Positions 478 to 25,252 of a stretch of 64,000 nt of DNA are shown piece by piece (positions within the stretch are counted from its first letter, which is position 1; the number at the start of each line of letters is the position of its first letter). The notes under the pieces are model-generated. The model saw only the letters and a list, made by a program, of their open reading frames with translations. It searched no databases and was not told the origin of the DNA. The stretch lies in NCBI GenBank assembly GCA_964554805.1, contig CAZKPX010000001.1, forward strand, positions 317,798 through 381,797. The letters run 5' to 3'. A program made the translations under genes and the position numbers. Origin of the DNA: an uncultured Candidatus Saccharibacteria bacterium. GTDB lineage: Bacteria > Patescibacteriota > CAZHWT01.

Positions 478-484
478 TGGCGGT

Positions 485-3793: not shown

Positions 3794-3910
3794 AATATTG
3801 GATATGGAATATTGAATATGGAGCTATATAGCTATATCCTATATTCAATATCCAGATACTAGTGTCCAATATTCTGGGATAATTGCATGAACTCGGGAGG
3901 GGTATTGTAT

Positions 3911-5101: not shown

Positions 5102-5146
5102 TTGGCTGAAAGCCAATTAATCGGATATGGTAGATAGGATATAGAA

Positions 5147-6218: not shown

Positions 6219-6270
6219 GCGATTACACTGAGAGGGTAGGGTATCTGTAGGGTGCGTTTTTGTTTATTGG

Positions 6271-8565: not shown

Positions 8566-8660
8566 AATCTTATGTGATTACTAAGAGTAAGACAATTCCA
8601 TAGGTAGGCATAATCAAAATGCCCAAAGCGCAAATTTTCGGTTGGCTGTATACTTAGCAT

Positions 8661-9854: not shown

Positions 9855-10711
9855 GAAGTGGTGTTTTCCCAGATACTATTGAATAGTTGGCGTAAAGTCT
9901 GAGCGATCTCGGGGTTGGTGATAATGGTAGTCACTACGCCCTGACGGTAGGTGCTGAGGGCAATATTGTCGCCGTAGACCATAATTTGGGCTGGAAAGAG
10001 GTGAGTGCCGAAGTGGCGGACAGCTACATTATTGCTGGCCAGCTGCTCTATTTCTTCTGGACTTAGTCTTTCTGCCTCAGAATAGATGGTTCTGACAGCG
10101 ATGCCTGCGGCGATTTGACGGGCGATTTGTTGGTCAATGGCTGTGGCTGACTGAGGATCATCTCGGTCATGGGCGCTAGGGAATATTAATAGTTCTTCTT
10201 TTTGGCGGATAATGTCATCAAATAGGGTGGTTAGGCCTTGAAGGCCCTCTAGATAGAGGACGCCTGGCTGTTCTTGGGTTAGCCTATAGGTGGATAAAAG
10301 TGACGGCAAGAGGCCTTCCAGGCGGTCAGAGCGGTCTTTGAGAGCCTTTTGTTGGCGGAGAATCATTTGCTTGAGGCTGGATGGGCTTTGGGCGGAGTAG
10401 GTGGTTTTGGCGGTGGAGGTATCTTTGGTGACGAGTTGGAGCTGTTCTAGCTGAGATAGGACCTCGTAGGCGTTGGTGCGGGTGATGTTGATGGCGGTGG
10501 CGAGCTGGGGTGGGGTGGTTTGGGGGGCGGTGAGGAGGTGGAGGTAGGTTTGGGCCTGAGAGGGATTGAGGCCGGCTTGGATTAGTTGGTCCAGGGCGGA
10601 GCTGTGCTCGGTTGTTGAGGATTGAGGGCTGGATGGTTTCGGCATGGGGTTTTGGGTTATGGGTGTCTTGGGGTGTATGGGTATTATAGGGTGTTTAATC
10701 AGTGCTGTCAA
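9851..10711 (-). CDS. TrmB-family transcriptional regulator
   Basis: N-terminal wHTH segment GLNPSQAQTYLHLLTAPQTTPPQLATAINITRTNAYEVLSQLEQLQLV matches the TrmB pattern. Confidence 0.6.
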   Translation of the reverse strand: MTALIKHPIIPIHPKTPITQNPMPKPSSPQSSTTEHSSALDQLIQAGLNPSQAQTYLHLLTAPQTTPPQLATAINITRTNAYEVLSQLEQLQLVTKDTSTAKTTYSAQSPSSLKQMILRQQKALKDRSDRLEGLLPSLLSTYRLTQEQPGVLYLEGLQGLTTLFDDIIRQKEELLIFPSAHDRDDPQSATAIDQQIARQIAAGIAVRTIYSEAERLSPEEIEQLASNNVAVRHFGTHLFPAQIMVYGDNIALSTYRQGVVTTIITNPEIAQTLRQLFNSIWENTTS

Positions 10712-11618
10712 TAGTTTTTTGACAAAATATAAATAGAGTTTATCTGAGATAATAGGCTATTAGTCTATATCTCAGTACCCTAGGCTATTGACATAATGCT
10801 AACTATGGGCTATACTGTGTTCAGTTAAATCGATTAGCTCAGTCAGCTGATTGAGTGATTTAACAAGTACCTTTAAGTTTCTTATAAGCTATTAGTAAGG
10901 ATGAAGTACGTCCGCCAGCTGGCGGATCCCTATATGTTTCATTCTGATTAATAGTAGATATGAATAATGGTGATAACCTGGATCGCTTCGGACGACAGGA
11001 AAGCCTAAATCATTCTACTGAGGCACAGGGTCGCTCTGGCCCGGGGAAACCTGGACCAGGGGATCAGTCTTATCTCCGCCATAATCGACGCGAGACGGCC
11101 TGCTGTATCCATTATTTCCATATCAACTGCTCCACGGCAATACACCCTATCTTTCATCTTCTGATGACGAAAGTATTGCTGGTGGAGAAAGGGGACAGGT
11201 GGTCCAAAAGGAATTACTCAATTCCATATAGATTGCCTGTCCTCAAGCGCAAAATTATTATGGTTGGTAGTTGGCAGTTAGTGGTTGGCGGAGAAAGTCT
11301 CTGCTAACGGATTGCTGAAAACTACTAACGCAATCTGGCAATACCAGATTGTTTCAAGCCTTTGTCTGGTCTGCTTAACCTATCTGAGCTAGACTATCTA
11401 ACCCAATGTTATCCTGAATTTGATTCCGGATATGGGTTGAGATCCTAGTCTAATACTCTGGTTGAGCCGACCAAGCAGATGCTTGTCGGCTCTGTTTGTT
11501 GCCACATGATGGGACGGATGGAGTACACAGCTACGCTGTGTGGTTAGCGGTTGGCAGTTAGCTGTTGGCCGAGAACTGCAGGAAACGAAGAGAGACGTAC
11601 CTTTACAAATCAATAATG

Positions 11619-11713
11619 GCTGCAATATTACCCACCTCTCCGTGGTGCAGCTTCCGCCAGTTGGCGGACCAGCCTTTGGCTGGAGATGAATCCGTATTTA
11701 ACGGTAAACCAAG
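11619..11713 (+). repeat. three-hairpin structured element, b/e family copy 1
   Basis: tccgccagttggcgga hairpin, then ccagcc-ttt-ggctgg, then ccgt-attta-acgg, then taaaccaag; a homolog at 15440-15511 carries compensatory changes. Confidence 0.55.
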
Positions 11714-11737
11714 TGGTAATAGTGGAGACTTTTCGGT

Positions 11738-11844
11738 CCCCTTTAGTGGTTAAAGTGTTTTTGCTGGTCTTACGATTGTTCTCTTCGTCATTGCGAGGAG
11801 CGTAGCGACGCGGCAAGCTGTTTTGTATTAACCATTAAATGGGG
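11738..11844 (+). repeat. R3 structured repeat copy 1 (core tcgtcattgcgagRagcgtagcgacgcggcaa)
   Basis: 14-bp closing helix cccctttagtggttaa / ttaaccattaaatgggg; copies at 14329-14431 and 22101-22205. Confidence 0.6.
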
Positions 11845-11928
11845 CTGAAGGGGGAGAGTCAGAGGTCTGAGACTTGTCTCAGTGCTGATTAGCTCTGCAC
11901 CTGGGTTCGATTCCCGGCAGCTCCACAA
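11841..11928 (+). ncRNA. tmRNA-like tRNA-like domain (88 nt), lacking the mRNA-like body
   Basis: 5' ggggctg pairs with 3' cagctcc, including a G3-U70 pair; T-arm ctggg-ttcgatt-cccgg directly before the acceptor 3' strand; the middle is a simple helix plus hairpin with no tag ORF. Confidence 0.35.
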
Positions 11929-13076
11929 AGTACCCCATCGTCTATGGGGGTGGGCAGGCAGGTGCGTCGCGTCTTGCGATAGCCTCGTTTTGTCCTTCAT
12001 CCTCGAAAGGGATGAAAAAATGACTCAGGCACAGGCACAGGCACAGGCTCAGATTGTAAATCGAGCGTTGTCTTTGGTCGGCCAGGTGCCGACCGACCAT
12101 CCGGCTTCGGCTCGGCGAGCAAGGGCTCGGAGAGCCCCTGCTTGGGGCCGCCAGCAACGTGCTGGCGGAAGTCCGCGCTGCCGACAAGACAGCTAAGGCC
12201 ACCCTAACGGGTGGCAAAAAGAAGCGCAAATAGCGGTTCTGCCCGGTGAGTGACCGGGCGGAAATCAAATAGTCACTTCGAGGTGGACGTCTCGTTAACC
12301 GTATTCTGGTGTGGCCGACCACTGCTGTGCGATTTGCGCAGGAGTTAATTGGCTCCAGACTCATTCTGGAGAATCATATGGGGCTGAACCCCCTGGGAGA
12401 TTGAGGGATCTCCCCAGACAAAAATATCCTTCCTCCAGCTCGGAGCTAGGTGCGCAAGGTGTGCATCTGGAAGAGTTACAATTCTGGCCTACGTCCATTC
12501 CACGGATATGGCCTAGCGAAGGAGGGTCTGTTATGACCTAACTCCGCGGTGGTTGGGGCATGCTTCCCCAACCACCAACAACTTATAGACTGCGAGATAG
12601 ATTACCTCCACGTGGTGCAGTCTGGATAGATAATTCGAATAGATTCCTGTCTACACAGGAATGACGGATTGTTGAACTAAGTATCTAAACAGGAGAGTAT
12701 TCTTCTTCTCAATAGCATAATTCATCGGTCATCAGTGCGCGTTGGTTGTGCTGTTGAGGAGTGGAAACACTTCTCCGGTTACAGCATCTTGCGAGGGTTT
12801 ATATTCCCTCGATCTAGCTCTGCTGAGACTGTTCGTCGTTCTGCTCCAAGCCTATCATGGCTGGGTCAGGGGCGATGCATGGTCGGGCCCTCCGATATGG
12901 GTAGCGGTCTGGTTGGGGACTTTTAGTCCCTGACTAGGCCTCCCGCCTATCTGGGTTGGCTAGTCTGCCCTACAGGGGTATTAGCGGTGCAATGCCGCAG
13001 GCTAAAAATACAGACCAGTGTTCTGACTGCCACTGGGGTTCATTGCAGCCTGCAATGGATTAAACTCTGTAGTCGT

Positions 13077-13269
13077 AAATCCGTACCCTCGAACCGTCAG
13101 GAAGCGGTATTCGCCAATCTGGCGAAGTCCCCGGTTCAGCTCCTCGGACTACGATCCCCCAAAATCGTGTCCGAGGAGAACCCCTCGGCAGCATCCGCCA
13201 ACTGGCGGAGATACGCCTCCTCGTGGCGCTGCTGGATAGTCTATTGAAAGATGGATGAACTGAGTATCT
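13077..13269 (+). repeat. R1 structured repeat copy 1 (about 193 nt)
   Basis: aaatccg..ccgtcagga..cgccaatctggcg..variable hairpin..tccgccaactggcgga..agatac..GAAA-loop hairpin..gtatct; about 85% identical to 14117-14310 with compensatory substitutions. Confidence 0.65.
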
Positions 13270-13335
13270 AGGAGAAGTTTTAGCGTAAAGATTACTTCTG
13301 TCCCAATTAAGATTCAAGGTTGCTTGAGTTTTGGT

Positions 13336-13470
13336 TGGGGGAGGAGTGGTATTAAGACGCTACTTCTTTCGACCCCGTACCGCGTAAGCGGATTGAGTGA
13401 TTCTCAATAGCCTTGGTCGCTTGATTAAGGCTTTCCTGGCGGTGCAGACCGCCGCCGCCCATAGGAGGGC
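13336..13470 (+). promoter_or_regulatory. R2 conserved structured leader upstream of the ORF starting at 13474
   Basis: Shared with 20419-20547: G-run closing stem, ccgc-GNRA-gcgg hairpin (gtaa vs gtga), variable hairpin, ggcggt-gcag-accgcc hairpin just before the GGAGG RBS. Confidence 0.5.
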
Positions 13471-13473
13471 GCA

Positions 13474-13968
13474 ATGGCTATCGTGAAGACAAGCGATGTT
13501 GGTATCCGAGTCAATCAACTCTCTCTAGGGATGTGGAGAGAGTTGGGAATAGAGAAGCCTTCCAGGTTTTCTTTATGGGACTACCTGGAAGGCCTCGACA
13601 GGTCCGTCGAGGCCTTGGGCCTCAGGGGAGTGGCAGTAGCCTCAATGAGGTTCCTGCCAGACGCTGCGGTTGTCATCGTATGGGAGCTACGACTCCCGTA
13701 CGATGAAGCTAGGCGGTTCGAAAGTCTATCTGATGGGCAGAAGGAGCGATTCCTTCTGCCCTTAGACAAACCGCTTGAATTCTCGGAAAAGATTGTGAGC
13801 CTCAACACGGAGAGAAACACCCCTCCATGGGAGAGACTCACAATCTCTGGGACGGATTCGTCTCAGTCGTATCTTAGCAGGCCGACAGATCTCTTGCTTC
13901 AGTCGGAGGCGGAGGCTGCAATTGCAGCTTACCGCAGTCGGCTCGAGGAGCTGGTCTCCTCGCTGTAG
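13474..13968 (+). CDS. hypothetical protein
   Basis: 164-aa ORF; GGAGG RBS 5 nt upstream; preceded by the R2 leader. Confidence 0.5.
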   Translation: MAIVKTSDVGIRVNQLSLGMWRELGIEKPSRFSLWDYLEGLDRSVEALGLRGVAVASMRFLPDAAVVIVWELRLPYDEARRFESLSDGQKERFLLPLDKPLEFSEKIVSLNTERNTPPWERLTISGTDSSQSYLSRPTDLLLQSEAEAAIAAYRSRLEELVSSL

Positions 13969-14116
13969 GTTTTTCTAGCGGTCGCGACCGCTTAGCCCGG
14001 GGTTGACCGGGTGATCTCGAAGCCGTTTGCGTAGAGCGGCATCAACTAGTCTTCTCTACGTCCAGCGCACTGCTGCTGGGGTTAATGACAGCCTGTCATT
14101 GACTAGAAGTGCAGAC

Positions 14117-14310
14117 AAATCCGCAAACCTCTGAACCGTCAGGAGCGGTATTCGCCAATCCGGCGAAGTCCCCGGTTCAACTTCCTCAGGTTGCGACTCC
14201 TTGTCGCACCTGAGGGAGATTCCCTCGGCAGCATCCGCCAACTGGCGGAGATACGCCTCCTCGTGGCGCTGCTGGATAGTCTGTCGAAAGACAGATGAAC
14301 TAAGTATCTA
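14117..14310 (+). repeat. R1 structured repeat copy 2
   Basis: Collinear with 13077-13269. Confidence 0.65.
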
Positions 14311-14328
14311 GCATCAGAGACTTTCTGT

Positions 14329-14431
14329 CTCACTTAGTGGTTAACCTGTTTTTGTTGGTCTTACGATTGTTCTTCTCGTCATTGCGAGAAGCGTAGCGAC
14401 GCGGCAATCTAGTGTTTCGACCATTAAGTGA
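14329..14431 (+). repeat. R3 structured repeat copy 2
   Basis: Closing helix ctcacttagtggtt / gaccattaagtgag; the same core as copy 1. Confidence 0.6.
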
Positions 14432-14568
14432 GGGAGAAATCTCTCTGAAGAAAAGAATCAAAACCCTGGGGAAACTCAGGTCTCTGCCCGTCAGCAGAGG
14501 GAGTGAAGTGTAGTGGCCTGGCAGCGTGCCAAAGCCCGTACCGCTTATGCTCCGCATCCTGTGAAAGG

Positions 14569-15250
14569 GATGAACATGAACTGGCAGTTGATTTTTTCAG
14601 TGGCCTTCGTGGCCACTGTGGCGATCGCTATGATTGCCTTCGCCGGCCGAGAAATCGGCGAGGTGAAGGCGGGCGCCGCCGCCGCGGCGCGAAAGGCCGC
14701 GGCTACGGCCGCGGAGGCTACCGCCCAGAAATGGGCGGTGAAGTACCGCAACCTGGAGGTCCTTCGGGACCTCCAGGCTCTCTTCGGAAGCACCCCTGTG
14801 ACGATCTTTGGATCGTCACAGAAGGGGGGCGGTTTCACCGCCCCCGAACGACCGTCCGACCTCGACCTGATGGTCGAGGTTGACGACGAGACCTGGGCGG
14901 AGTGGGCCGCCCAGGTCTACCCGGCAGATCTCGTCGGGGCGGAAGCCCCCCCAGTTTACAACGACAACTGGGGCGGTGGCGAGACCGCTCTGGTTAGGGG
15001 GAGGACAATCACCGTTCTCCCTTACGAGACGGTCTACCCGACGCGCATTGCGCGCCGGGAGGCCGCCCAGGAGATCCTAGGCATCGAGATTGAGCCCCTC
15101 GGGCTCAATCTCGACATCTTCCTCTTCCCGCACTCGTTTGTGCGGGAAGAGATGACCATCCCGGCTTGGGATGGTGCGGAGACCGGAAGGTCTTTCCGGG
15201 AGGAGGTCCTGGCAGGAGTCAAGCTCTCTGAGCTTCAGCCTGCGGACTAA
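14569..15250 (+). CDS. nucleotidyltransferase (Pol-beta/MNT superfamily) with an N-terminal TM helix
   Basis: Motif IFGSSQKGGGFTAPERPSDLDLMVEVDD (GS-x9-SDxDL); N-terminal hydrophobic helix WQLIFSVAFVATVAIAMIAF; Ala-rich linker. Confidence 0.6.
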
Positions 15251-15439
15251 TGACCCTCAGCGCACTGCTGCGCTGGCTGACGACGCATTCGTTGGCGAAA
15301 TGAAGCAGATAGACCTTACCTCGGATCCTTCGCGACTGAGATGGTCGAACCCCGGGGAGCGTAAGCTCTCTGGGGAAACCCATGGCAGCAATTGATTCGC
15401 CTCTACGATGGCTCGCCTAGCCGAAATGCTAGTGCAGGC

Positions 15440-15511
15440 TGGCGCTGCTTCCGCCGGTTGGCGGACTGGTCTTTTGACCAGAGATGAATCCGTCTTGAAC
15501 GGTAAACCAAG
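15440..15511 (+). repeat. three-hairpin structured element, b/e family copy 2
   Basis: tccgccggttggcgga, then ctggtc-tttt-gaccag, then ccgt-cttga-acgg, then taaaccaag. Confidence 0.55.
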
Positions 15512-15661
15512 AATCAAAAATAAACGACATTGATGTCTCCAGGCTACTTGCTGGGGAACAATCAGGGGGCTTTTAACGTTGACCCCTGGTTGTTCCTTGG
15601 GCAGGGAACTAAAGCCAGCCGCGGGTGCGGTAGGCTGAACAATTGCCCTAGAGGAGGCCCT

Positions 15662-16012
15662 ATGGCCACCAAATTCATCAATCTAACCCCTCATACGATC
15701 AATGTTGTTGTTGTTGGGGAGGAGGGTGACGTTGTCGCCTCCTTCCCGGCTTCGGGACAGGAGGCTCGGGTGGCAACCACCCGGGAGCTGTCTCATAACC
15801 TCGACGCCGATGGTGTCGGGATCCCGGTCTTCAGGACCGGGTACGGGGAGATCGAGGGGCTGCCGGCCCCCGAGGCCGGCACTATCTTCGTCGTCTCTGG
15901 TCTGGTGGCTGCGGCCACCGACCGTGATGACGTCGTCTCTCCGGGCGAACTCGTCCGGAACTCCGAGGGGCAGCCGATTGGCTGCCGGGGGTTCTCCCGC
16001 CCCGCTCGATAG
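15662..16012 (+). CDS. hypothetical protein
   Basis: 117 aa from ATG 15662 with a gaggagg RBS; the longer ORF is open from 15530. Confidence 0.45.
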   Translation: MATKFINLTPHTINVVVVGEEGDVVASFPASGQEARVATTRELSHNLDADGVGIPVFRTGYGEIEGLPAPEAGTIFVVSGLVAAATDRDDVVSPGELVRNSEGQPIGCRGFSRPAR

Positions 16013-16209
16013 GGAGAGTTCGGTGGGTGTCCGAACTAAAATAACCACCCCAATTCCAGCCAGTGTGTCTGTGGCTGGGGGTTGGCTGTTGCTTGCAGCT
16101 GACGAAACAAATCTTCGGACATAGGGACCTAACCTGCTGCGGAAGCCTTTGGGTGACTAAGGCAATATCGGTTCCGGCTCCTGGGATGGTGAGATTACTC
16201 ATCGTTCTA

Positions 16210-16303
16210 GGAGACCTTCGTGGCAGCATCCGCCAACTGGCGGAGATACGCCTCCTCGTGGCGCTGCTGGATAGTCTGTTGAAAGATGGATGAACTAAGT
16301 ATC
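16210..16303 (+). repeat. R1 repeat, 3' half only
   Basis: ggcagcatccgccaactggcggagatacgcctcctcgtggcgctgctggatagtctgttgaaagatggatgaactaagtatc. Confidence 0.6.
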
Positions 16304-16658
16304 AGAAGGAAGAGTTTATTTTTGTTCTTAGCCCGTTGCTCTTAGGTGCCTAGTTGACCCTATTGGAAGATAGGGCCAATGGGTTGATTATTTAGCTGAG
16401 AGCAGCGTGGTGGGAATGAAAGAGTTGACGGCTTCTCGGGTGAGGAGCTTTTGGTGTATCTGGGGAGTGAGCAGGTATGCCGGGAGCTCCTCATTGAGGA
16501 GCGCAACCTAGGTGAATTGCAGTAAAAACTCTTTTGGGCAACCCTGCCCGATGCCGTAGGTGCTCTGGATGAAATTGAGCGCTGAATGGAAGTCAGTTAA
16601 AGACTGGCCGAGCAGGGTGGGTATTGTCGCGAGACGCCCCTGGCTCGAAGGAGTTGCT

Positions 16659-19600
16659 GTGAGCAACAATATTCTTCTTCCAATCTCCGCTTATCGGGCG
16701 GAGATTGAAGCAGGGGTGGATGGCGATTCGGTGGTGGTTGTCACCGCTGAAACGGGGACTGGGAAAAGCACGCAAGTGCCGCAGTACATGTTGGAGGCTG
16801 GGTATGATCTGGTAATCACCCAGCCGCGTCGGCTGGCCGCCCGAACAGTGGCCCAGCGAGTGGCCGAGGAAATCGGTCAGGAATTGGGCGGAATTGTTGG
16901 TTATCGGACGGCGGAGGATCGGCGAGATTCGTCGGACACCCGCTGTTTATTCGTGACCGATGGTCTTCAGCTTGTTCGCGAGCTGATGGGTCATGGGAAG
17001 CGGCAAGTTTTGATTCTGGACGAGGTCCATGAATGGAACGAGAACCTGGAAGTTCTCGTTGCCTGGGCCAAGCTCCAGATCGAAACTGGAGCTGATTTCA
17101 AGCTAGTGCTGATGAGCGCTACGCTTGAAGCCGACAAGTTGGCCGCCTATTTTGGTGGTGCGCCAGTTATCTCGGTTCCAGGCCGACTGTTTCCGGTGAC
17201 GGAGCAGAAGCCAGGAGGTTCGGTGGAAGCCGACGTTGCGGAGCTGGTTCGCCAGAGGCGCAATACACTGGTATTCCAGCCGGGCAAGGCGGAGATTGAG
17301 GCCACCTGTGCTGCTTTGCGGCAGATGCAAGTGTGGGCTGAGATTTTGCCTTTGCATGGGCAGTTGACCGCCGAGGAGCAGGCTCGCTGCTTCCGGCATT
17401 ACGGTAAACCCAAGGTGGTGGTGGCATCAAATGTGGCGCAGACCAGCGTCACAATTGACGATATCGACGCCGTTGTCGACTCCGGCATGGAGCGACGGAT
17501 TGAGTTGGTGGATGGGGTTGAGGGCTTGTACCTTAAGCCTATTTCGCTGGCTGATTCTGCGCAGCGCCGGGGTCGAGCTGGTCGGACGAAGGCAGGGATC
17601 TATATCGATCGCTGCCCGAGTGTCGACCGACCGGAGTTTCCGGTGGCCGAGATCCTGCGCAAGCGGCTCGACCAGACGGTACTCCGGTTGGCCAGTGCTG
17701 GGTTTGACATGGAAGAGCTGGAATTCTTCCATCAGCCTGACAAGGCTGACATCCACGAGGCTCGTCAGTCTCTAGTGGCTCTCGGCTGCATGACAGCGGC
17801 TGGAGAAGTCACATCGATGGGGAGACGGGTTAACAAGCTGCCGGTGTCAGTGCAGTATGCGCGGATGCTGGTGGAAGCTGAGCGGTTGGGGGTGGTGGAC
17901 GATCTCCTGACTGTGGCAGCTATCTTGGAGCAGGGCGGTATTACAGTTGCCCCCCCAAGTCGGTCTAATCTGACCCGACCTGATTGGCGCCGAATGGTGC
18001 CGCAGGAGCAGGAGTCGGATATTCTTGGTCAGCTGGTTGTCTATAAAATGGCAGCTGAGATGACCAATGACCAACTCTATCAGAGTGGGGTGGCTCTGAA
18101 GGCCTATTATCGGGCTAAGGAGATCCGCTCTCATTTGGCGAGGGCTCTGGGCGCTCGGTTCCATTCTGGTTCAACGGGTCGCCGCGAGGACATCCTCAAA
18201 GCGGTCTGTGCCGGGATGGTTGACCATCTCTACCATGGCACTGGTGGGGGATGGAAGAATGGTGACGATACTGTCCGAGAACTGGGCAGTTCGTCGCTGG
18301 TTCAGAATGCCAGTTGGTTGGTGGGTCGGCCTTTTGACCTGCAGATCAAGGCACGCTATGGGCATACCACCCTGCGCCTGATCGAGCTGGCGTCAAAGGT
18401 TGAGCCGAACTGGCTGGTCGAAGTCGCTCCGCATTTGGTGGAGCAACAGACTGGCCTGCAACCTCGCTTTGATGACCGGAAGGGGGTGGTGGTTTCGACC
18501 ACCAAGACTCTCTTTAATGGTCAAGAAGTGGGGGAAGAGGAGGTTGTGGATCGGGAGCACCCCGAAGCAGCCGATCTCTTTGCTGGCTGGCTGGCTGGGC
18601 TGAGTCAATCTCGGGCGGAGAGTCTGGGGTTGGAAATTATGGTTCGCAATCTGGCTCGCAACCAACGAGCTAAGGAGCTGAACCAGCGGGCCGGCGAGAC
18701 CCTCTTTGGGGTGGTTGAGCTGCAGGCTTGGTATCTTGCCAAGCTGGAGGGCGCTGGCAACTTTAAGGAGGTGGTGGAGAAGCAGGTGGCTGCGAAGTGC
18801 CTGCTGCCCGATCTCGACCAGGATTTGATTGATCTGGTGCTCCAAGAGCAGCCAGACTCGATTGAGTTGCTGGGCGAAGGCCTGAAAGTAGAGTATGTTG
18901 ATGGCTACGGTCATCGGCGTACTCACCCTAGAGTTCGGTTGTCGGATCAGCAGATTCAGGCGAAGGCCTGGCTTGAGCTGTCTGATGACCAGCCGGTTCG
19001 CCTGTCTGGCGGGCGAATGGTTGAAGTGGCGGTTGAAGTGGCTTATACTACTTTCTCCTCTACTGAGCCATTCCTGCTGAAGGAGCGGGTGCGCGAGTAC
19101 CTGAACCAGAAGCAGTGGGACGCCTGGCATCGACCAGAGGTCTCAGTTGAGGGGCTGGAGTCGGCAGATCAGATTCCGTTTATGACCGCTGTCTATGGAC
19201 AGTGCGTGGTGACGGGGCAGGATCTGCTGGCTTACGGTACCGTTCGGGCACGCCGGTATTGGTCCAGGATTGATCGCTGGCAGCCGGTGTGGGTTCGGTC
19301 TCTTGATGAGGCTGAACGGGTTCGATCCGAGGCAGTGGCAGCACTTGAAGAGGTGCGAGCTGAAGCTGAGGTGAAGGCTATGGAGTCCAGATTGAAGATT
19401 CTGGATGCCCATAACGGCTGGTTCTACCTTGATCGCTCGTCGGAGGCTTATAAGCGCCTTCAGGGCATAATGGTAGAAGTCCCGCCCGCTAGTCGGGAAT
19501 GGTTGATAGAGGCGGGGCGACTGGTTGAAGAGCTGGCTCCTGCCCTTGAGCAGGCCGAGCAAGATGGCTTGGCTGCTGAACAGGCAGCTAAGGCTGAGCA

Positions 19601-20090
19601 ACAGCAGATCGAAGAGAAGGCGGCTGGAATATTGGCTGCGGTCAATCCCAGTGGTCATCACAACTTTGGTTTGGCTGAGGTTCGGTTGGCGAGCCAGTTG
19701 GCCGAACAAGCGGTTCGGCTGGTGGGACAAGCCCGGGCTCAGGCGATCTTCCGAGAGGAAGCGGATGCTTCTTATCGAAGATCGCTCAAATGTCAGCGAA
19801 TCAGAGAGGCTATTCCTGGTTTGTTTGACACGGAAGTTGGGTCGCGGTTCCTCCAGATTCCGGCGCGGTATGTCACCGAATGGTGGTTGCAAGCGACGGC
19901 ATTGTGGTTGGAATCGAATACCACCACGTCGACCGAGGAGTTGCCTGCTCCTGCTCCTGCTCTGATTGAGCTGGAAGAGCAGCCGACGGTGTCAGTTTTG
20001 GCTGTCAAAGAACAGTCTGCCGAGGAGGCAGAAGAGTCTTTTGACAGTCCTATGGCGCTAGCAATGCGTCGGGCCGGGATTAAGTTTTAA
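16659..20090 (+). CDS. DEAH-box (HrpA/HrpB-like) ATP-dependent helicase with a roughly 450-aa C-terminal extension
   Basis: Walker A TGTGKSTQVPQ, DEVHE box, helicase-C and HA2-like region QRRGRAGR; GTG start at 16659 with an aaggag RBS matches the HrpB N-terminus (LPI..); the ORF is open from 16560. Confidence 0.85.
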   Translation: MSNNILLPISAYRAEIEAGVDGDSVVVVTAETGTGKSTQVPQYMLEAGYDLVITQPRRLAARTVAQRVAEEIGQELGGIVGYRTAEDRRDSSDTRCLFVTDGLQLVRELMGHGKRQVLILDEVHEWNENLEVLVAWAKLQIETGADFKLVLMSATLEADKLAAYFGGAPVISVPGRLFPVTEQKPGGSVEADVAELVRQRRNTLVFQPGKAEIEATCAALRQMQVWAEILPLHGQLTAEEQARCFRHYGKPKVVVASNVAQTSVTIDDIDAVVDSGMERRIELVDGVEGLYLKPISLADSAQRRGRAGRTKAGIYIDRCPSVDRPEFPVAEILRKRLDQTVLRLASAGFDMEELEFFHQPDKADIHEARQSLVALGCMTAAGEVTSMGRRVNKLPVSVQYARMLVEAERLGVVDDLLTVAAILEQGGITVAPPSRSNLTRPDWRRMVPQEQESDILGQLVVYKMAAEMTNDQLYQSGVALKAYYRAKEIRSHLARALGARFHSGSTGRREDILKAVCAGMVDHLYHGTGGGWKNGDDTVRELGSSSLVQNASWLVGRPFDLQIKARYGHTTLRLIELASKVEPNWLVEVAPHLVEQQTGLQPRFDDRKGVVVSTTKTLFNGQEVGEEEVVDREHPEAADLFAGWLAGLSQSRAESLGLEIMVRNLARNQRAKELNQRAGETLFGVVELQAWYLAKLEGAGNFKEVVEKQVAAKCLLPDLDQDLIDLVLQEQPDSIELLGEGLKVEYVDGYGHRRTHPRVRLSDQQIQAKAWLELSDDQPVRLSGGRMVEVAVEVAYTTFSSTEPFLLKERVREYLNQKQWDAWHRPEVSVEGLESADQIPFMTAVYGQCVVTGQDLLAYGTVRARRYWSRIDRWQPVWVRSLDEAERVRSEAVAALEEVRAEAEVKAMESRLKILDAHNGWFYLDRSSEAYKRLQGIMVEVPPASREWLIEAGRLVEELAPALEQAEQDGLAAEQAAKAEQQQIEEKAAGILAAVNPSGHHNFGLAEVRLASQLAEQAVRLVGQARAQAIFREEADASYRRSLKCQRIREAIPGLFDTEVGSRFLQIPARYVTEWWLQATALWLESNTTTSTEELPAPAPALIELEEQPTVSVLAVKEQSAEEAEESFDSPMALAMRRAGIKF

Positions 20091-20418
20091 TCTTTGTCGT
20101 GAGGCGGAGGCCTCGTATCAATACTCCAGCGGCTTGTGTTGACCGCTGACTGCCTACAGCGTGTAGGTAGTAAATTCTCAACACATCGGGCCTGTCCGTT
20201 ATTGACGGAGAACGACCCATTGGGTAGGGGGCTAAAACCCCTACCTACTTTACGGCTGCATATACATGCCTCTTCGTGGCGTAGCTAGAAATTCGTTTAT
20301 GTGACGAAGCTAAATGTATGAGAAGTGGAAGAAAGCTTACTTCTGTCTCAATCAGAGCTTGAGACTTTAGGCGTAGATTCCGGATCTAGTCCGGAATGAC
20401 GGCCTTTTGAGCTTTGTT

Positions 20419-20547
20419 TGGGGGGAGAAGTGCTATTAAGACGCTACTTCTTTCGTCCCCGTACCGCGTGAGCGGATTCAGCATCTCAATCCCCGGCCAC
20501 TTGGCTGGGGTTGTTGGCGGTGCAGACCGCCCACGCCTTTGGAGGGC
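20419..20547 (+). promoter_or_regulatory. R2 conserved structured leader copy 2
   Basis: Homolog of 13336-13470, directly upstream of the ORF starting at 20551. Confidence 0.5.
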
Positions 20548-20550
20548 AAA

Positions 20551-20994
20551 ATGATCATCTGCCCCACCATTTACTATTGTCATCCCGGGCAGGAGATACT
20601 TCTGCCTGTGGGGGCGGTCCGTCTGCAAGGGCAGGCGGATGGTTGGTGGGTGGGGGAAGATATCCCTCATCTGCCGTTTGGCCAGAGAAGGGTGAAGGGA
20701 GGGGTCTTCATTGTAGAGGAGGACCTCTCCGATCCCTCGTTCTATGTGGAGGTTGTTATCCTCCACAATGTGAATGAGGGCCTGCCTGGGGCCATCCCCG
20801 CGCTGTTGATTGGGATTGGGGAAGCAGCGCCCCTTGCTGTCCCCAGTAAGAGTGCCTATCGCACTCTGACCGCCGAGGCTACATGTCCTCACTGCGGTTG
20901 TGGTCGCGATTTTAGGCAAAGCTGGGTGGCGGTCGAAGGCTGTTATTTCTGCGATACAGCCATTCGTTCCCCGTTCAGTATGAGCCCAAGCTAG
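20551..20994 (+). CDS. hypothetical protein with a C-terminal Cys4 zinc-ribbon
   Basis: CPHCGCG..x16..CYFCD; GGAGG RBS; the overlapping minus-strand ORF 20386-20919 was rejected. Confidence 0.45.
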   Translation: MIICPTIYYCHPGQEILLPVGAVRLQGQADGWWVGEDIPHLPFGQRRVKGGVFIVEEDLSDPSFYVEVVILHNVNEGLPGAIPALLIGIGEAAPLAVPSKSAYRTLTAEATCPHCGCGRDFRQSWVAVEGCYFCDTAIRSPFSMSPS

Positions 20995-21300
20995 ACTGAA
21001 CCCCGGAGAGCTGGAGGCTCTCTGGGGAACCCAATGGCAGTATCCCCAACTGGCGGAGATACGCCTCCACGTGGCGCTGCTGGAATAGTGCTTATTGTCA
21101 GGCTGAACTAAATTCTGCAGAATAAATCTGCGAATAAATCCAAACAGGATGACATTGAGTATTAACTGAGTATCTGAGGGAGAGTTTTTTCTGTCCGCTT
21201 TAGTTTTTTGATTATGAAAATTGATGCTATGGGTACGTTGTTGCTCGGTGTCGATGGTGAGTTAAAAGATTGAAGCGGGGAGATGAATGATGGAGGCTGG

Positions 21301-21478
21301 GTTATGGCAGTGTGCTGTGGCGGCTTCTGTCGGGTATATTTGACATAAGCTGGGCTTGTGACTAGGAACCCGTTTCTGAAATTTGTCTGTGGCCTTGAGG
21401 AAGATAGGGCTGAGGGGTTATAGTGCGGTTGATGTTTTTTAACGGTTAGCCGCTATTTCGGAGACGGGTTTTTGGTAA
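21301..21478 (+). repeat. R4 direct repeat, left copy (about 178 nt)
   Basis: About 93% identical to 22267-22440. Confidence 0.7.
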
Positions 21479-21597
21479 GTAGGGGGGATTGCCGGTCCGC
21501 TTGAGGCTTTTGGGTAATGAAGCTTGAAGTGGGGTGGTATGTGAGGGCAGGGAAAGATTCTCTGCTTGGGACCTCCCAATTAGAAAGGAGGGGTGCA

Positions 21598-21789
21598 ATG
21601 CACCCAGTCTTTTTCTTGCTAGCAATAGCGGCCACGCTGGCCGCTATTGGAGCAGTCGCTTGGCTGCTCTTCGGCTTCCATCAGGACACTCGGAAGGCGC
21701 TCGAGGTCTCCGTTGAGACCCGGGTTGCCATTGCGGCGATCCTGATCGGCACGGCCGCGATTGGCTGGTGCCTGGCGGTATCGGTTTAG
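21598..21789 (+). CDS. small two-TM membrane protein (63 aa)
   Basis: MHPVFFLLAIAATLAAIGAVAWLLFG..AIAAILIGTAAIGWCLAV; followed by a perfect hairpin cgaggaaggagg..ccttccttcctcg. Confidence 0.35.
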   Translation: MHPVFFLLAIAATLAAIGAVAWLLFGFHQDTRKALEVSVETRVAIAAILIGTAAIGWCLAVSV

Positions 21790-22007
21790 CGTGGTGGTCG
21801 AGAAAACCCGCGAGGAAGGAGGTTATTACCTTCCTTCCTCGGGGGAATACATTTTATATTGGAGAAGGAGTTGGTTTTGTAAGTGAGAAGAAAGAAGAGA
21901 GATCTTGTGGAGCAACAGGCGACAAGCGACCCCGATAGATCGGGGCAGGCTCGGCGACGAGACCTGGATTTGCGAAGCAAGCAACAGTGAACCTTAATAA
22001 TCAAATA

Positions 22008-22085
22008 ATGGCTGCAATATTACCCATCTCTCCGTGGTGCAGTCTGGATAGTCTGTTGAAAGACGGATGAACTGAGTATCTGACA
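22008..22085 (+). repeat. R1-variant repeat (ggctgcaatattaccca..ccgtggtgcag..ctggatagtctgttgaaagacggatgaactgagtatct)
   Basis: Shares its 5' module with 11619-11650 and its 3' module with R1. Confidence 0.55.
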
Positions 22086-22100
22086 TCAGAGACTTTCTGT

Positions 22101-22205
22101 CTCGCTTAGTGGTTGAGCTAGTTGACGCTTGTTTATGATTGTTCTTCTTGTCATTGCGAGAAGCGTAGCGACGCGGCAATCTAGTCTATTTGACCACTGA
22201 GTGAG
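22101..22205 (+). repeat. R3 structured repeat copy 3
   Basis: Closing helix ctcgcttagtggtt / gaccactgagtgag, with G-U and A-U substitutions relative to copy 2. Confidence 0.6.
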
Positions 22206-22266
22206 GGAGAAATCTCTCTGAAGATCGGATGGCCTGTCAGTCAAGGCGGGTAGGAAGAGTGGTTGG

Positions 22267-22440
22267 GGCAGCAGTGTGCTGTGGCGGCTTCTGTCGGGTA
22301 TATTTGACATAAGCTGGGCTTGTGACTAGGAACCTGTTTCTGAAATTTGTCTGTGGCCTTGAGGAAGATAGGGCCGAAGGGCTATAGTGAGATTAACTTG
22401 TTGTTAGTCACTATTTCGGAGACGGGTTTTTGGTTGGAAT
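22267..22440 (+). repeat. R4 direct repeat, right copy
   Basis: See 21301-21478. Confidence 0.7.
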
Positions 22441-22528
22441 AGCACGGCACGGCTTTTGAAGTGAATAGTGGGTGCTTGGTTGTTGCGTTATGGTATAATA
22501 TGCTGTCACAATTGCTTGTTGCCTGGGA

Positions 22529-23050
22529 GTGCTGGGCGGTGGTTGTGATAAAGGAGAGTGTTCGGTGGTTCAGCAAGAAACTAGCCCCGTAGAGTTGGGT
22601 AAGTATGAAATTTCACCCGAGGACTTTGAAGCGCTTCGGGCGCTATTACCTGCCCCGGTGGAGACGACGGTTGTTGAGTTTCTTCGTCATCACAATATTG
22701 TCAAGTCATTCGAAGCCCACGGTATTGTCTTGTTGCCATCCAGAGCTCGCAGCGGTCCAAAAGTCTCCTTGAACGAGGATGTTGGCCTTGAGGATTTACT
22801 GACAGGTCAGTGCGTCTTATTGGGAGCGTATTTGTCGGGATGGGGCGGCCCACTACTTTGTTCGTACGCATGGCATTGGGCTGTGGCAAGAAATGGCAAC
22901 GAGACGCTTCCATTTCTGAAGGAGCAGGATGGTCCAAAATATGACCAGTGGACTGGCTACGGCGCTTTTGATCAGTTGCTGGGCTTAATGCCGAGCTGGT
23001 TGAAGCTTGACTCGGACTGGCGAATTGAGGATGGTTGGATTCGCCGATAA
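22529..23050 (+). CDS. hypothetical protein
   Basis: 173-aa ORF. Confidence 0.4.
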   Translation: MLGGGCDKGECSVVQQETSPVELGKYEISPEDFEALRALLPAPVETTVVEFLRHHNIVKSFEAHGIVLLPSRARSGPKVSLNEDVGLEDLLTGQCVLLGAYLSGWGGPLLCSYAWHWAVARNGNETLPFLKEQDGPKYDQWTGYGAFDQLLGLMPSWLKLDSDWRIEDGWIRR

Positions 23051-23156
23051 CGGAGATAGACAGTGGGGTGGAGGGAAATTCTCTCCACCCTGTTGCATTT
23101 TGCTAACAATACATCTTGTTTTTGATAGTTATTATGAGTAAGCTTGGCTATAAGAG

Positions 23157-23507
23157 TTGAGCATAAAGGTTGATTTAAAAGGCAAGGAGCAGAGGATGTC
23201 ACTGGTCGCACCGGAAGTCATGACGTGTACGCCGCATCATTCGACTGAGATGGCGATCATGAAACTTTGCCCAAAGGGCGAGGAGATTGAATCGGTGTCG
23301 GCTGTTTTGAGTTGGTTCTGGTTGGGAGCTTATGTTAATGAGCGTGGGCGGGTAGTGCTGGAATGGCTGCCGTGCCTCAAGGTGGGGTGGGAGAGTTTTC
23401 TGCCGAACCAGAAGGCTGAGCTGTTTGAGCGAGTTGGATTGGCGATTCTGGAGATGGAGCTGCCACAACAATGGGTTATTGTTGACGGACGGCTTCGCAG
23501 ACGGTGA
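23157..23507 (+). CDS. hypothetical protein
   Basis: 116-aa ORF. Confidence 0.35.
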   Translation: MSIKVDLKGKEQRMSLVAPEVMTCTPHHSTEMAIMKLCPKGEEIESVSAVLSWFWLGAYVNERGRVVLEWLPCLKVGWESFLPNQKAELFERVGLAILEMELPQQWVIVDGRLRRR

Positions 23508-23778
23508 GCCAATCAGGAGTTTTAATTGGAATAGAGAGATATTAGCGCCTCCTGGGTAGGAACCAGGGGGCTTTTTATGGGCAGGTTATGGGACTGTTGT
23601 TGGGATTTATTGTTCATAATGAGGCACTCCTATTTATTTTTATATAAGGATATAGTTTATTATTTGAGTATATATATTTATATAGTGGTTGTATTTGAAA
23701 ACAGAGCATTATCTTGCTATACTCTGTGCCTAAACGTGTCTGTCGCAAAACAGGGCAACAAGTTTGAAGGAGTGAGGG

Positions 23779-25180: not shown

Positions 25181-25245
25181 CTCAATGGCAGAGCAGGAAG
25201 CTGTTAACTTCAAGGTTGTTGGTTCGAATCCAGCCCGAGGAGCCA
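25171..25245 (+). tRNA. tRNA-Asn (anticodon GTT)
   Basis: Acceptor tcctcgg/ccgagga; D-stem gctc/gagc; anticodon loop ctGTTaa; T-arm gttgg-ttcgaat-ccagc; gCCA encoded. Confidence 0.85.
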
Positions 25246-25252
25246 TGAATAT

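Follow-up and report, generated by a model that had tools for sequence, protein, structure and literature searches.

A candidate array of nine hepatitis delta virus-like ribozymes in a proposed cassette-like operon of a Patescibacteria chromosome

What does a bacterial chromosome keep in a stretch that is rich in G and C, crowded with structured repeats and, over several kilobases, apparently devoid of genes? The question is raised by a segment of 64,000 nucleotides (hereafter, the window) from contig CAZKPX010000001.1 of an uncultured Candidatus Saccharibacteria bacterium, in which a first-pass annotation had singled out the region between 10.7 and 22.45 kb as RNA-rich rather than protein-rich. 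This description has proved apt, given that the region holds nine putative ribozymes, recurrent modules that serve as leaders and trailers, one tRNA-like domain, and three ribozyme-bounded segments free of convincing open reading frames (ORFs). The structured repeats, which had been described in generic terms, are real and confined to the stretch, and nine of them correspond to a type that had been missed: self-cleaving ribozymes resembling that of the hepatitis delta virus (HDV). We propose, with a probability of roughly 0.7, that the region is a ribozyme-insulated, cassette-like polycistronic operon of about 12.3 kb, which lies inside a 20-kb inserted block (Table 1).

The architecture of the repeats provides the first line of evidence. 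Their most conserved core reads GGCAGC-(hairpin)-GATAC-GCC-UCCUCGU-GGC-GCUGCU-GG-(short hairpin)-GAACUAAGUAUC, and its layout is that of the HDV-like ribozymes: a helix P1 with P3 enclosed in it, a helix P3 closing a 7-nt loop L3, a two-pair helix P1.1 between the CC of L3 and the GG that follows P1, a helix P4, a cytosine in the junction J4/2, where HDV has its catalytic C75, and a P2 pseudoknot (GAUAC/GUAUC) that joins J1/2 to the 3′ tail. The nested double pseudoknot can be drawn with all five elements in r12, r13, r14, r16, r20, r21 and r22, which are thus canonical; r11 and r15 retain P1, P2 and P3, with insertions preceding P1.1. A G1.U wobble, the usual first pair of P1 in this family, occupies the cleavage site in seven of the nine copies (r11, r13, r14, r15, r16, r20 and r21), and a G1-C pair in r12 and r22. 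The J4/2 cytosine is present in all nine, 3-4 nt before the 3′ strand of P2, in the contexts A-C-U-A/G-A, G-C-U-A-A or A-C-C-A-A-G, and that of r20 aligns to the GCUAA of the Rfam model.

Divergent copies keep these helices with different letters. P2 occurs in four unrelated forms (TATTACC/GGTAATA, AGATAC/GTATCT, TTGATT/AATCAA and TATACAT/ATGTATG), each of them complementary to its own partner only, P1 varies among GGCAGC/GCTGCT, GGCTGC/GTAGCT and GACTGC/GCAGTC, and P3 is either GCC/GGC or ACC/GGT. Thus r11 combines P1 GGCTGC/GCAGCT (with the G1.U pair), P2 TATTACC/GGTAATA, P3 ACC/GGT and L3 TCTCCGT, and carries two hairpins inserted between the 3′ strand of P1 and P1.1; r12 combines P1 GACTGC/GCAGTC, P2 AGATA/TATCT, P3 ACC/GGT and L3 TCCACGT; and r13 has P1 GGCAGC/GCTGCT (again with G1.U), a hairpin TCCGCCAACTGGCGGA in the junction J1/2, P2 AGATAC/GTATCT, P3 GCC/GGC, L3 TCCTCGT, P1.1 CC/GG and ACUGA as J4/2. 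The P4 of r14 (TCTGTC/GACAGA) is compensated with respect to that of r13 (TCTAT/ATGGA). In r15, P1 GGCAGC/GCTGCT and P2 TTGATT/AATCAA coexist with hairpins after P1 and an insertion of about 33 nt beside L3/P3. The compact r20 shows P1 GGCTGC/GTAGCT, P2 TATACAT/ATGTATG, L3 TCTTCGT and a P1.1 of CT/AG, compensated with respect to the CC/GG of most other copies. These pairings were tabulated explicitly, with no formal counting of pairs, because MAFFT alignments misregistered P1 and P4.

Table 1. Main features of the window (positions counted from its first nucleotide).
Feature	Position	Strand	Remarks
Variable block between rpoD and tRNA-Asn(GTT)	5102-25170		Absent at the site in the closest sibling found
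TrmB-like winged-helix regulator	9851-10711	-	Pfam TrmB, E 7.9e-10; divergent from the operon
Candidate promoter of the unit	10788-10816	+	TTGACA-17-TATACT; 11/12 consensus; best plus-strand match in 10500-23600
Segment S0, leader RNA before the first ribozyme	~10824-11617	+	No convincing ORF; palindrome TCCGCCAGCTGGCGGA at 10911-10926
r11, variant	11618-11721	+	R1 29.3 bits, E 2.4e-6, not in seed
Segment S1	11618-12587	+	No convincing ORF; holds the tRNA-like domain
tmRNA-like tRNA-like domain	11841-11928	+	Rfam tmRNA 42.8 bits (gathering 47), E 2.2e-14
r12, extended P4	12588-12686	+	R1 62.9 bits
Segment S2	12588-13186	+	No convincing ORF
r13	13187-13269	+	R1 75.5 bits; also found by HDV structural descriptor
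Cargo gene, 164 aa	13474-13968	+	After leader module 'e'; no family matches or homologues in related loci
r14, r13-like architecture	14227-14309	+	R1 75.7 bits; also found by descriptor
Cargo gene, 226 aa	14570-15250	+	Hydrophobic N-terminus; FGSS-x12-SDLDLMV; no Pfam, NCBIfam or PDB match
r15, variant	15384-15517	+	R1 20.8 bits, E 6e-4, not in seed
Crn4b ring nuclease homologue	15662-16012	+	PDB 9r7b 'Crn4b' E 2.3e-16, residues 4-111; PADLOC Unk_01 E 1.5e-22
r16	16222-16303	+	R1 73.4 bits; also found by descriptor
HrpA-like DEAH/RHA RNA helicase, 1173 aa	16569-20090	+	Conserved anchor gene; Pfam DEAD, Helicase_C, HA2_C
r20, compact	20254-20320	+	R1 60.9 bits; also found by descriptor; 164 nt past helicase stop
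Cargo gene, 147 aa	20551-20994	+	C-terminal CxxC...CxxC Zn-ribbon motif; after module 'e'; no family matches
r21, large P4 insertion, decayed J1/2 hairpin	21036-21175	+	R1 35.1 bits, E 5e-8, not in seed; also found by descriptor
Small cargo gene, <=90 aa	21517-21789	+	After module 'f'; no family matches
r22, compact chimera	22010-22079	+	R1 81.1 bits; 5′ half r11-like, 3′ half r13-like
Last gene of the unit, 173 aa	22529-23050	+	No family matches
Intrinsic terminator-like hairpin	23061-23095	+	16 pairs plus T-rich tail; top-ranked site; probable end of the unit
GIY-YIG nuclease gene	24638-25180	+	Pfam GIY-YIG E 1.1e-29; abuts tRNA-Asn(GTT) 25171-25245
16-bp palindrome TCCGCCNNNNGGCGGA	10911, 11653, 13194, 14234, 15450, 16229, 24612, 24892, 44599, 48979, 62270		Start positions of the 11 copies

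A covariance model, R1, was built from six of the copies, deleting the J1/2 hairpin from three of the seeds so that MAFFT could align them, and was applied, filters off, to both strands of the whole 64-kb window. It returned exactly nine matches, all on the plus strand between 11618 and 22082, with 20.8-81.1 bits and E-values down to 1e-21; r11, r15 and r21 stood outside the seed, and the next best hit scored 8.1 bits. The matches start at 11618, 12588, 13187 (aligned from 13204), 14227 (14244), 15384, 16222 (16239), 20254, 21036 (21052) and 22010. A structural descriptor of our own, which demands the helices P1, P1.1, P2 and P3 together with the J4/2 cytosine, picks out six sites of the window versus two in 1.5 Mb of shuffled sequence, and outside the window gave chance-like matches only. 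The L3/P3 core CYCYNCGTGGYG occurs eight times, where 0.09 would be expected, always within the unit. At gathering thresholds, Rfam sees six tRNAs in the whole window and nothing more; below them, r20 (20254-20321) matches the HDV-F-prausnitzii family along the full model (positions 1-74), with an E of 0.0018 and 35.1 bits where gathering requires 44, and when the 101-nt stretch of r22 is searched alone the same family is one of two appearing at E<=10, although not significantly (13.6 bits, E 1.3). A group I intron, with 'GGATAGTC' and an upstream 'CAGACAAAT' as P7 and R/S, had also been considered for these repeats; it was dropped, since the HDV pairing scheme accounts for all the conserved positions and there was no Rfam intron match at E<=5.

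How are these motifs arranged with respect to genes? Between the candidate promoter and the terminator-like hairpin, every gap between genes contains one predicted ribozyme and no more; r16, for instance, starts 210 nt past the crn4b stop codon and ends 266 nt before the start codon of the helicase gene. The unit extends from about 10788 to 23105 and takes in the gene at 22529-23050, so that the end formerly placed at 22450 falls short. Upstream and divergent from it lies the TrmB-like gene, with a 12/12 sigma-70 consensus promoter at 10711-10683 of the minus strand; as the listed ORF begins at the TTG of the -35 box of its own promoter, the true start codon should be located further in.

The ribozymes are accompanied by other shared pieces. 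Self-comparison with blastn revealed a long-hairpin leader module 'c' (11725-11844, 14317-14433 and 22089-22182), a leader module 'e' (13324-13476, similar to 20407-20553) and a leader module 'f' (21307-21476, 22271-22434 and, in part, 16365-16455), as well as two families of 3′ trailers (13026-13186 with 14069-14226, and 15347-15388 with 20998-21040). The region 14060-14460, which includes a copy of module 'c', folds with a z of -9.4. The trailer 13026-13186 (z = -4.0) ends exactly at a predicted cleavage site, and together with the adjoining ribozyme makes a 250-nt repeat with 80% identity (13026-13271 versus 14069-14311). When 10000-23500 was compared with the whole window, all the matches fell within 11.6-22.4 kb.

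Regarding the coding content, the claim that 10.7-13.4 kb has no convincing ORFs holds well: those of at least 80 aa have neither family matches nor, for 10960-11307, 11882-12196, 11942-12364 (minus strand) and 12987-13247, any homologue in 90 related loci, and all but 10960-11307 lack the GC1>GC2<GC3 pattern of real genes (GC content at the three codon positions). The ORF-free 21.8-22.5 kb is a non-coding leader. On the contrary, 20.1-21.5 kb does contain a gene, that of 147 aa at 20551-20994, whose Zn-ribbon label has as its basis two C-terminal CxxC motifs only. The DEAH helicase was correctly named, with matches to the HrpA structure (PDB 7akp, E 4.4e-72) and to TIGR01967 HrpA (E 8.6e-92, below the family cut-off). 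For the 226-aa protein called a nucleotidyltransferase (NTase), family and structure searches return nothing and just the motif 'FGSS...SDLDLMVEV' is present, which fits the NTase signature G[GS]-x(9-13)-D-x-D; on this motif alone, the protein resembles a minimal nucleotidyltransferase. The gene 21517-21789 has a predicted membrane helix from an internal ATG at 21599. Judged by its match to the structure, the product of 15662-16012 is a homologue of Crn4b, a small phosphodiesterase that degrades cyclic oligoadenylates, of a family described in PMC12830947. The window shows no type III CRISPR locus, and PADLOC recognises just the Crn4/Unk_01 match and weak Cas3-like matches to the helicase core, with no known defence system.

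From this layout we infer that the unit is transcribed as a single RNA of about 12.3 kb, from the promoter at 10788-10816 to the terminator at 23061-23095, and that the ribozymes act in its insulation and stability. A typical cassette would consist of an HDV-like ribozyme, a shared leader module, one ORF or none, and sometimes a shared 3′ trailer. As the polymerase passes, each ribozyme would fold into its nested double pseudoknot and cut the RNA immediately 5′ of P1. HDV-type ribozymes cut at their own 5′ edge, and self-cleavage to 2′,3′-cyclic phosphate and 5′-OH ends is accordingly predicted at nine sites, before positions 11618, 12588, 13187, 14227, 15384, 16222, 20254, 21036 and 22010, to give ten RNAs. 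Every upstream product would finish in a 2′,3′-cyclic phosphate with no ribozyme sequence attached, and every downstream one would begin with a 5′-OH buried in a compact, cap-like ribozyme fold followed by the leader. Seven of the products would be monocistronic mRNAs (two for proteins of unknown function and those for the NTase-like protein, Crn4b, the HrpA-like helicase, the Zn-ribbon protein and the small membrane protein), whereas the three 5′-proximal ones, S0, S1 and S2, would have no convincing ORF, S1 carrying the tRNA-like domain. Stability and translation of neighbouring cistrons would in this way be uncoupled, and acquired cargo could be slotted as portable cassettes beside the TrmB-like/Crn4b/helicase core, a view in agreement with cargo genes that are unique and modules that are reused as in a mosaic. 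That the helicase or Crn4b acts on the ribozyme products is a speculation.

Public assemblies also touch this part of the unit. A Logan contig of 1039 nt (SRR16798009, our L001) spans 13213-14251, from r13 to r14, and carries the exact sequence of the 164-aa gene. This 1-kb contig and another one of 5087 nt (P0001), both from short-read assemblies, break at or near ribozyme repeats, so loci of this kind are likely fragmented, lost or under-represented in metagenome-assembled genomes.

A second line of evidence comes from relatives of the locus, which we compared with the window as related or sibling loci (labelled L002, L004 and so on). Thousands of proteins share 45-73% identity with the helicase, and those that bear a name come mostly from Patescibacteria. 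In tblastn searches the TrmB-like gene accompanies the helicase in 16 loci, upstream and on the opposite strand, and a Crn4b-like gene lies upstream in nine; none of the remaining island ORFs has a homologue there. The order found in the window (a large protein of unknown function, the opposite-strand TrmB-like gene, a gap, small genes and the helicase) recurs in L002, L004, L066 and L089, the gap being an ORF-poor leader in L002 and L066 and a shorter unannotated one in L004 and L089.

A number of these loci carry a different predicted ribozyme. A hammerhead descriptor run on 85 related loci found 33 sites, compared to 0-1 in shuffled sequences. Two additional Rfam matches bring the total to 35, of which some 25 qualify as clean type III hammerheads in the orientation of the helicase gene, 20 of them within 2.3 kb of it. 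The best example, at 1524-1578 of L086, precedes by 211 nt a helicase that shares 63% identity with ours; it shows stems I, II and III around the CUGANGA...GAAA core and exceeds the gathering score of Rfam Hammerhead_3 (RF00008; 48.9 bits versus 48.5); weaker matches of 28-41 bits, below gathering, occur in L087, L066, L070 and L004. In three loci hammerheads stand on both sides of the helicase: L021 has one 126 nt before it and another 426 nt after it, in L037 the distances are 241 nt before and 1659 nt after, and L080 has two upstream (119 and 1983 nt) and one downstream (1293 nt). The one of L052 falls, with the second of L021, 426-453 nt downstream, and L004 has three between genes. Hammerheads also follow the stop codon of crn4b, by 154-161 nt in L066 and L078 and by about 690 nt in L070, to be compared with the 210 nt of r16. 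Hammerheads are more frequent in the loci with Crn4b (6/9 versus 14/78; Fisher p = 0.004). The fact that HDV-like motifs and hammerheads occupy the same places around crn4b and the helicase suggests that cleavage itself is what selection maintains. The association is frequent rather than universal, as E-value scans with Rfam of L002, L005, L006, L009, L010, L089 and L090 detected no ribozyme.

Each genome has a private set of intergenic repeats, and two of those loci deserve a comment. In L002, structured modules lie one after each gene (6575-6640, 8532-8600, 9674-9746, 13431-13513 and 14853-14889), and in L005 there are two series of them (1061-1210, 2458-2605 and 9581-9644; and 4401-4495, 9695-9775 and 10777-10858). 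They match no Rfam family, blastn found no counterparts in the other loci, and RNAalifold folds them into hairpins with almost no covariation among their 3-5 paralogous copies. We regard these modules as candidate processing elements of other kinds, possibly new ones. Upstream of the helicase, at the place held by the Crn4b homologue in the window, small genes of L087 (739-1044) and L005 (3457-3828) give weak matches to Csx3 (the Crn3 ring nuclease), so that different ring-nuclease-like families may fill the same slot.

Several observations weigh against the proposed operon. No copy reaches the Rfam gathering score, and a scan of 13.5 kb detected r20 only. In r13, r14, r16 and r21, R1 prefers an alternative 5′ strand of P1 (GGCGGA) located inside the hairpin, which makes the cleavage site ambiguous by 17 nt. 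Because of the insertions between P1 and P1.1 the activity of r11 and r15 is doubtful, and we know of no record that HDV-like ribozymes tolerate insertions there; the P2 of r22 (ATATT/AGTAT) is weak. The high scores of R1 are partly a matter of construction, since the J1/2 hairpin was removed from three seeds. All nine copies are paralogues of one genome and their structure was fitted by eye, so that the covariation, with no member found elsewhere, rests on five or six sequence types. R1 gave nothing significant in 89 related loci (84, then 5), and neither the viral contigs nor the JGI metagenome contigs that were scanned contained the exact pattern CGTGGYN{5,7}TGGATAGN{15,45}GAACTRAGTATC. In around 75% of the related helicase loci no ribozyme can be recognised. 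Finally, module 'f' contains weak internal promoter-like sites, for which reason the genes need not all be co-transcribed.

The similarity among copies raises a different explanation, where the repeats would be a selfish or decaying family, either resembling miniature inverted-repeat transposable elements (MITEs) or spread by recombination, possibly derived from a ribozyme, multiplied inside an island of recent acquisition and without any present role in RNA processing, and the ORF-poor parts would be pseudogenised. Copies r13, r14 and r16 are in fact near-identical (91-96% over 82-100 nt), modules have been shuffled into mosaics such as r22, some copies look degraded (the decayed hairpin of r21, the insertions of r15, the weak P2 of r22), the whole block is inserted relative to a sibling genome, and five of the 11 copies of the palindrome TCCGCCNNNNGGCGGA are dispersed outside the unit. 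This clashes with the disposition of the nine copies, all in the same orientation, one per intergenic space and none within genes or outside the unit, with the compensatory changes in P1, P1.1, P2 and P3 by which divergent copies hold the fold, and with the presence of an unrelated ribozyme class at the same positions in distant relatives, which points to selection for cleavage. We therefore consider a selfish or decaying family unlikely.

The palindrome itself deserves separate attention. It is 16 bp long and occurs 11 times in the window, against 0.1 expected. The operon has six of them, of which the first follows the candidate promoter by about 90 bp, three occupy the J1/2 of ribozymes and two the P4. 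It is found inside r11, r13, r14, r15 and r16; its absence from r12, r20 and r22, and its shift between J1/2 and P4, mark it as an accessory and not a part of the repeat core. Among the five copies outside the unit, one sits just upstream of the GIY-YIG ORF and another within it. Altogether it looks like a genome-wide hairpin or protein-binding element.

Could the repeats then work as DNA, either as integron-like recombination sites or as operators of the TrmB-like regulator, with the RNA folds being incidental? The layout is indeed reminiscent of integron cassette arrays, with promoter-less, variable ORFs of a single orientation separated by structured, imperfect inverted repeats, and the cargo genes lack homologues in the related loci. 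A perfect palindrome close to the promoter, repeated in five of the ribozymes, may also bind a protein. Unlike an integron, however, the array neighbours a TrmB-like helix-turn-helix gene instead of IntI, and its repeats are ribozyme-like (no model specific for attC was applied). Scans of ORFs of the 20-kb block recognised neither integrases nor recombinases, the halves of P2 covary at distances of 50-110 nt when a DNA site would not need a long-range pseudoknot, the repeats are strand-specific in the covariance-model search, and the palindrome is an accessory, as noted. A function at the DNA level seems to us very improbable.

Within S1 there is another RNA with a recognisable relative, the transfer-messenger RNA (tmRNA). 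The domain at 11841-11928 shares with tmRNA an acceptor stem GGGGCUG/CAGCUCC with the G3:U70 pair and a T-arm (CUGGG-UUCGAUU-CCCGG), both preserved in the minimum-free-energy fold, and a weak permuted-tmRNA match (11901-11952) overlaps it. It differs in lacking the mRNA-like domain and pseudoknots (about 280 internal positions of the model are deleted) and an encoded CCA, since ACAA stands where ACCA would be expected, as well as in its conservation, as none of the 90 related loci has a counterpart consisting of a tRNA-like domain only: they contain ordinary tRNAs and one probable full tmRNA (L058). Given the deletion of the mRNA-like domain, the score below gathering and the absence of an ARAGORN tmRNA call at this place, we regard it as just a tRNA-like domain and not as a tmRNA. 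In mitochondria, tRNA folds punctuate polycistronic transcripts and are cut out by RNase P and RNase Z. This one, as a tRNA-like fold in a polycistronic RNA, could be cut alike; it may be a processing signal for RNase P/Z or a relic, its role as a cut site being a speculation.

Where does the unit come from? The window is a piece of bacterial chromosome, with two tRNA-Ser genes followed by dnaG (1907-3793) and rpoD (3887-5101), and its RpoD, 68-73% identical to homologues in Daviesbacteria, WWE3 and Microgenomates, places the host within Patescibacteria. The many tRNAs, the coding on one strand and the strong skew could also have suggested a large phage, a possibility that was rejected in view of the dnaG-rpoD pair and the Patescibacteria-type RpoD. 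Siblings were located through their RpoD. In one of them, L091 (GCA_964597145.1; RpoD 97% identical), the two tRNA-Ser, dnaG and rpoD are collinear with 338-5104 of the window, and a tRNA-Asn 92.7% identical to 25154-25249 follows rpoD by just 289 nt, compared to 20.07 kb in the window and 4.85 kb in L093 (RpoD 92% identical). The latter holds four unrelated genes in the interval and a serine recombinase just past the tRNA, and in L095 the interval differs again. Because rpoD and tRNA-Asn are only 289 nt apart in L091, we take 5.1-25.2 kb as an inserted block; the interval appears to be a variable hot spot, and the block is best read, from these alignments, as an integrated island. It comprises three genes of unknown function, the TrmB-like gene, the ribozyme operon, two small genes and the GIY-YIG nuclease gene. 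The first three and the TrmB-like gene carry the third-position G and C (G3/C3) bias of the host, which the operon genes do not.

Like tRNA-associated genomic islands, the block is present or absent beside a tRNA gene in an interval that differs among siblings; it departs from them in its place, which is before the tRNA gene and not at the 3′ end of the latter, and in that no integrase or direct repeats were recognised. Blastn of the left against the right junction gave matches at chance level and no flanking direct repeats, the scanned ORFs of the 20-kb block showed no recognisable integrase or recombinase domain, and no phage structural, integrase or conjugation genes were recognised in family scans. 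The block carries Crn4b and GIY-YIG, genes typical of mobile genetic elements. The suspicion of a horizontally acquired block was in consequence sound as to the insertion; its limits are 5.1-25.2 kb instead of 10.7-22.45 kb, and GC content enters the reasoning otherwise, as discussed below. Nor is the same block, repeats included, a syntenic possession of all relatives: siblings lack it at the site, and those relatives that bear the locus have different repeats.

Homologues of the GIY-YIG nuclease were observed 0.7-2 kb upstream of the helicase in L008 (~7828-8010), L056 (~6912-7181) and L057 (~9307-9573), and another one, probably an intron homing endonuclease, within the 23S rRNA gene of L005 (~16670-16936); it may be that such nucleases help the locus to move. 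In L004 (GCA_964492265.1), the large protein, TrmB, the helicase and the three hammerheads lie between secY and adk, interrupting an otherwise conserved ribosomal-protein/secY/adk/map order, and in L089 the locus follows a methyltransferase gene. Helicase homologues also exist in the actinomycetes Actinoallomurus and Spirillospora (L029 and L033; 59-61% identity), where their GC matches that of the host (68% versus 70%) and no ribozymes were found, and in metagenome-assembled genomes of Clostridia (42-45%), which hints at transfer of the helicase between phyla.

The base composition was the feature that originally called attention to the region, as a jump to 60-65% GC over a backbone of 45-50%. 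The backbone value agrees with our 42-51% (with a very strong positive GC skew), and the rise is borne out, albeit smaller than stated: in windows of 1 kb, GC is 49-60% along 11-22 kb, with a peak of 59.9% at 15-16 kb, and averages 54.4% for 10788-23105 versus 47.2% for the parts of the window more than 6 kb away from the helicase gene. GC skew drops from 0.2-0.5 in the backbone to 0.04-0.2 within the GC-rich stretch, the tetranucleotide distance from the backbone is twofold at 12-20 kb, and third-position C reaches 0.20-0.42 in island genes versus 0.06-0.13 in backbone genes, with G3 at 0.41-0.46 in the latter. About 49% of 10824-23105 is non-coding when gene coordinates are summed. All the genes of the stretch sit on the plus strand, as had been pointed out, but this does not set them apart, because most genes of the window do likewise.

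These figures could be read in the most ordinary way: a native locus with the GC content of its conserved helicase, a protein whose amino-acid composition would resist the drift towards AT. The intergenic structures of the locus would then be terminators, attenuators or hairpins like the repetitive extragenic palindromic (REP) ones, fitting the HDV scheme by chance. The helicase gene is richer in GC than its far flanks in 62 of 65 genomes (median +9.3 points, maximum ~30) whatever the GC of the host, which it tracks (r = 0.81), the 1-kb profiles extend the excess to its close surroundings, and the GC1 of ours is 0.68; the sub-threshold Rfam scores and the many related loci with no detectable ribozyme go in the same direction. 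From the 62 of 65 it follows that GC richness is a standing property of this locus family and not the mark of a recent arrival. A native locus of this kind is nonetheless very unlikely, in our opinion. Both GC3 and C3 are shifted in the island genes, not GC1 alone; the nine R1 matches, three from outside the seed and with E-values as low as 1e-21, contrast with none in the other 52 kb; the descriptor sites are far above those of shuffles; the family that Rfam singles out is precisely HDV; and the block is missing at the site in siblings.

The window has other particularities. Third codon positions of the backbone are very asymmetric (e.g., 1907-3793, 5199-8565, 32162-34093 and 56202-58997), with 1-kb GC skews of up to 0.54, and nearly all the genes lie on one strand, a bias unusually strong for a bacterial chromosome. 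A second GC peak (64%) at 45821-46553, unrelated to the operon and inside an ORF of 990 aa (44781-47753), is due to a 24-nt (or 72-nt) tandem repeat of about 20 copies that apparently codes for repetitive, low-complexity protein in which Thr, Pro, Glu and Ala abound. A 79-nt unit in two tandem copies (87% identical) occurs at 451-608, directly after tRNA-Ser(CGA). There is a tRNA-Ile with anticodon UAU at 48800-48876, which is uncommon in bacteria, and two tRNA-Met(CAU) 54 nt apart at 52788-52990.

How does the proposed operon compare with what is known? Both HDV-like ribozymes in bacteria and clusters of ribozymes flanking genes are already established. The copies of the window share with the HDV-like (delta-like, drz) family the nested double pseudoknot, an L3 of 7-8 nt (UCYNCGY) and the J4/2 cytosine, and differ in the 16-nt J1/2 hairpin of four copies, in the insertions between P1 and P1.1 of two, and in that none attains a gathering score. 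In Faecalibacterium prausnitzii, the HDV-like ribozyme (Rfam RF02682) is a single copy upstream of glmM (PMC6765202, citing Webb et al. 2009), in contrast to the nine copies in 10.5 kb of one Patescibacteria operon described here. Theta ribozymes (PMC10879173) are likewise HDV-like, come from prokaryote-associated DNA and have been proposed to process RNA 3′ ends; they are minimal and lie beside tRNAs in gut phages, whereas those of the window have a full P4, sit between protein genes and never abut a tRNA or tRNA-like domain.

The closest parallel could be the clustered hammerheads that flank single genes in prophages and cleave polycistronic transcripts of about 2 kb in vitro (Perreault et al. 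2011, PMC3088659). In both cases, several ribozymes of the same strand flank genes or short blocks of them, the variable cargo looks like genes of mobile elements or anti-defence (ArdA in prophages, Crn4b in the window), and one ribozyme class appears exchangeable for another. The prophage clusters have two or three ribozymes, compared to nine HDV-like ones occupying every intergenic space, and our locus is not a recognisable prophage and is anchored on a TrmB/Crn4b/HrpA-like helicase core. Within the literature that we searched, whose coverage is incomplete, we found no report of an HDV-like array separating the genes of a bacterial operon, of self-cleaving ribozymes in Patescibacteria, of ribozymes tied to a TrmB/Crn4b/HrpA-like helicase locus, or of the replacement of hammerheads by HDV-like ribozymes at equivalent positions.

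A broader and frankly doubtful extension would see in these loci a conserved platform of many Patescibacteria, in which RNA-level cassettes insulated by interchangeable ribozyme classes (HDV-like in the window, hammerhead in other lineages), under TrmB control and together with the HrpA-like helicase and Crn4b, host acquired cargo. The modules of L002 and L005 would be new ribozyme classes, the helicase would unwind or recycle cleaved folds, the phosphodiesterase would process cyclic phosphates, and the tRNA-like domain would be a mark for RNase P/Z. If that were so, selection on the structure of the RNA would explain why the locus is rich in GC whatever the host.

Looking for ribozymes through their gene neighbourhoods led in the past to twister-sister, pistol and hatchet, and by the same logic L002 and L005 are good places to search for new classes. 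It has been noticed that unrelated ribozyme classes, such as the hammerhead and twister, share gene neighbourhoods for a reason that "has not yet been determined", and the same review has argued that what counts in these places is self-cleavage and not the motif that brings it about (PMC6765202). The proposed operon links ribozyme clusters to a gene set widespread in Patescibacteria, which acts on RNA or on the phosphodiesters of cyclic and linear oligonucleotides. By offering matched positions across genomes, this locus bears on the question of what bacterial self-cleaving ribozymes are for.

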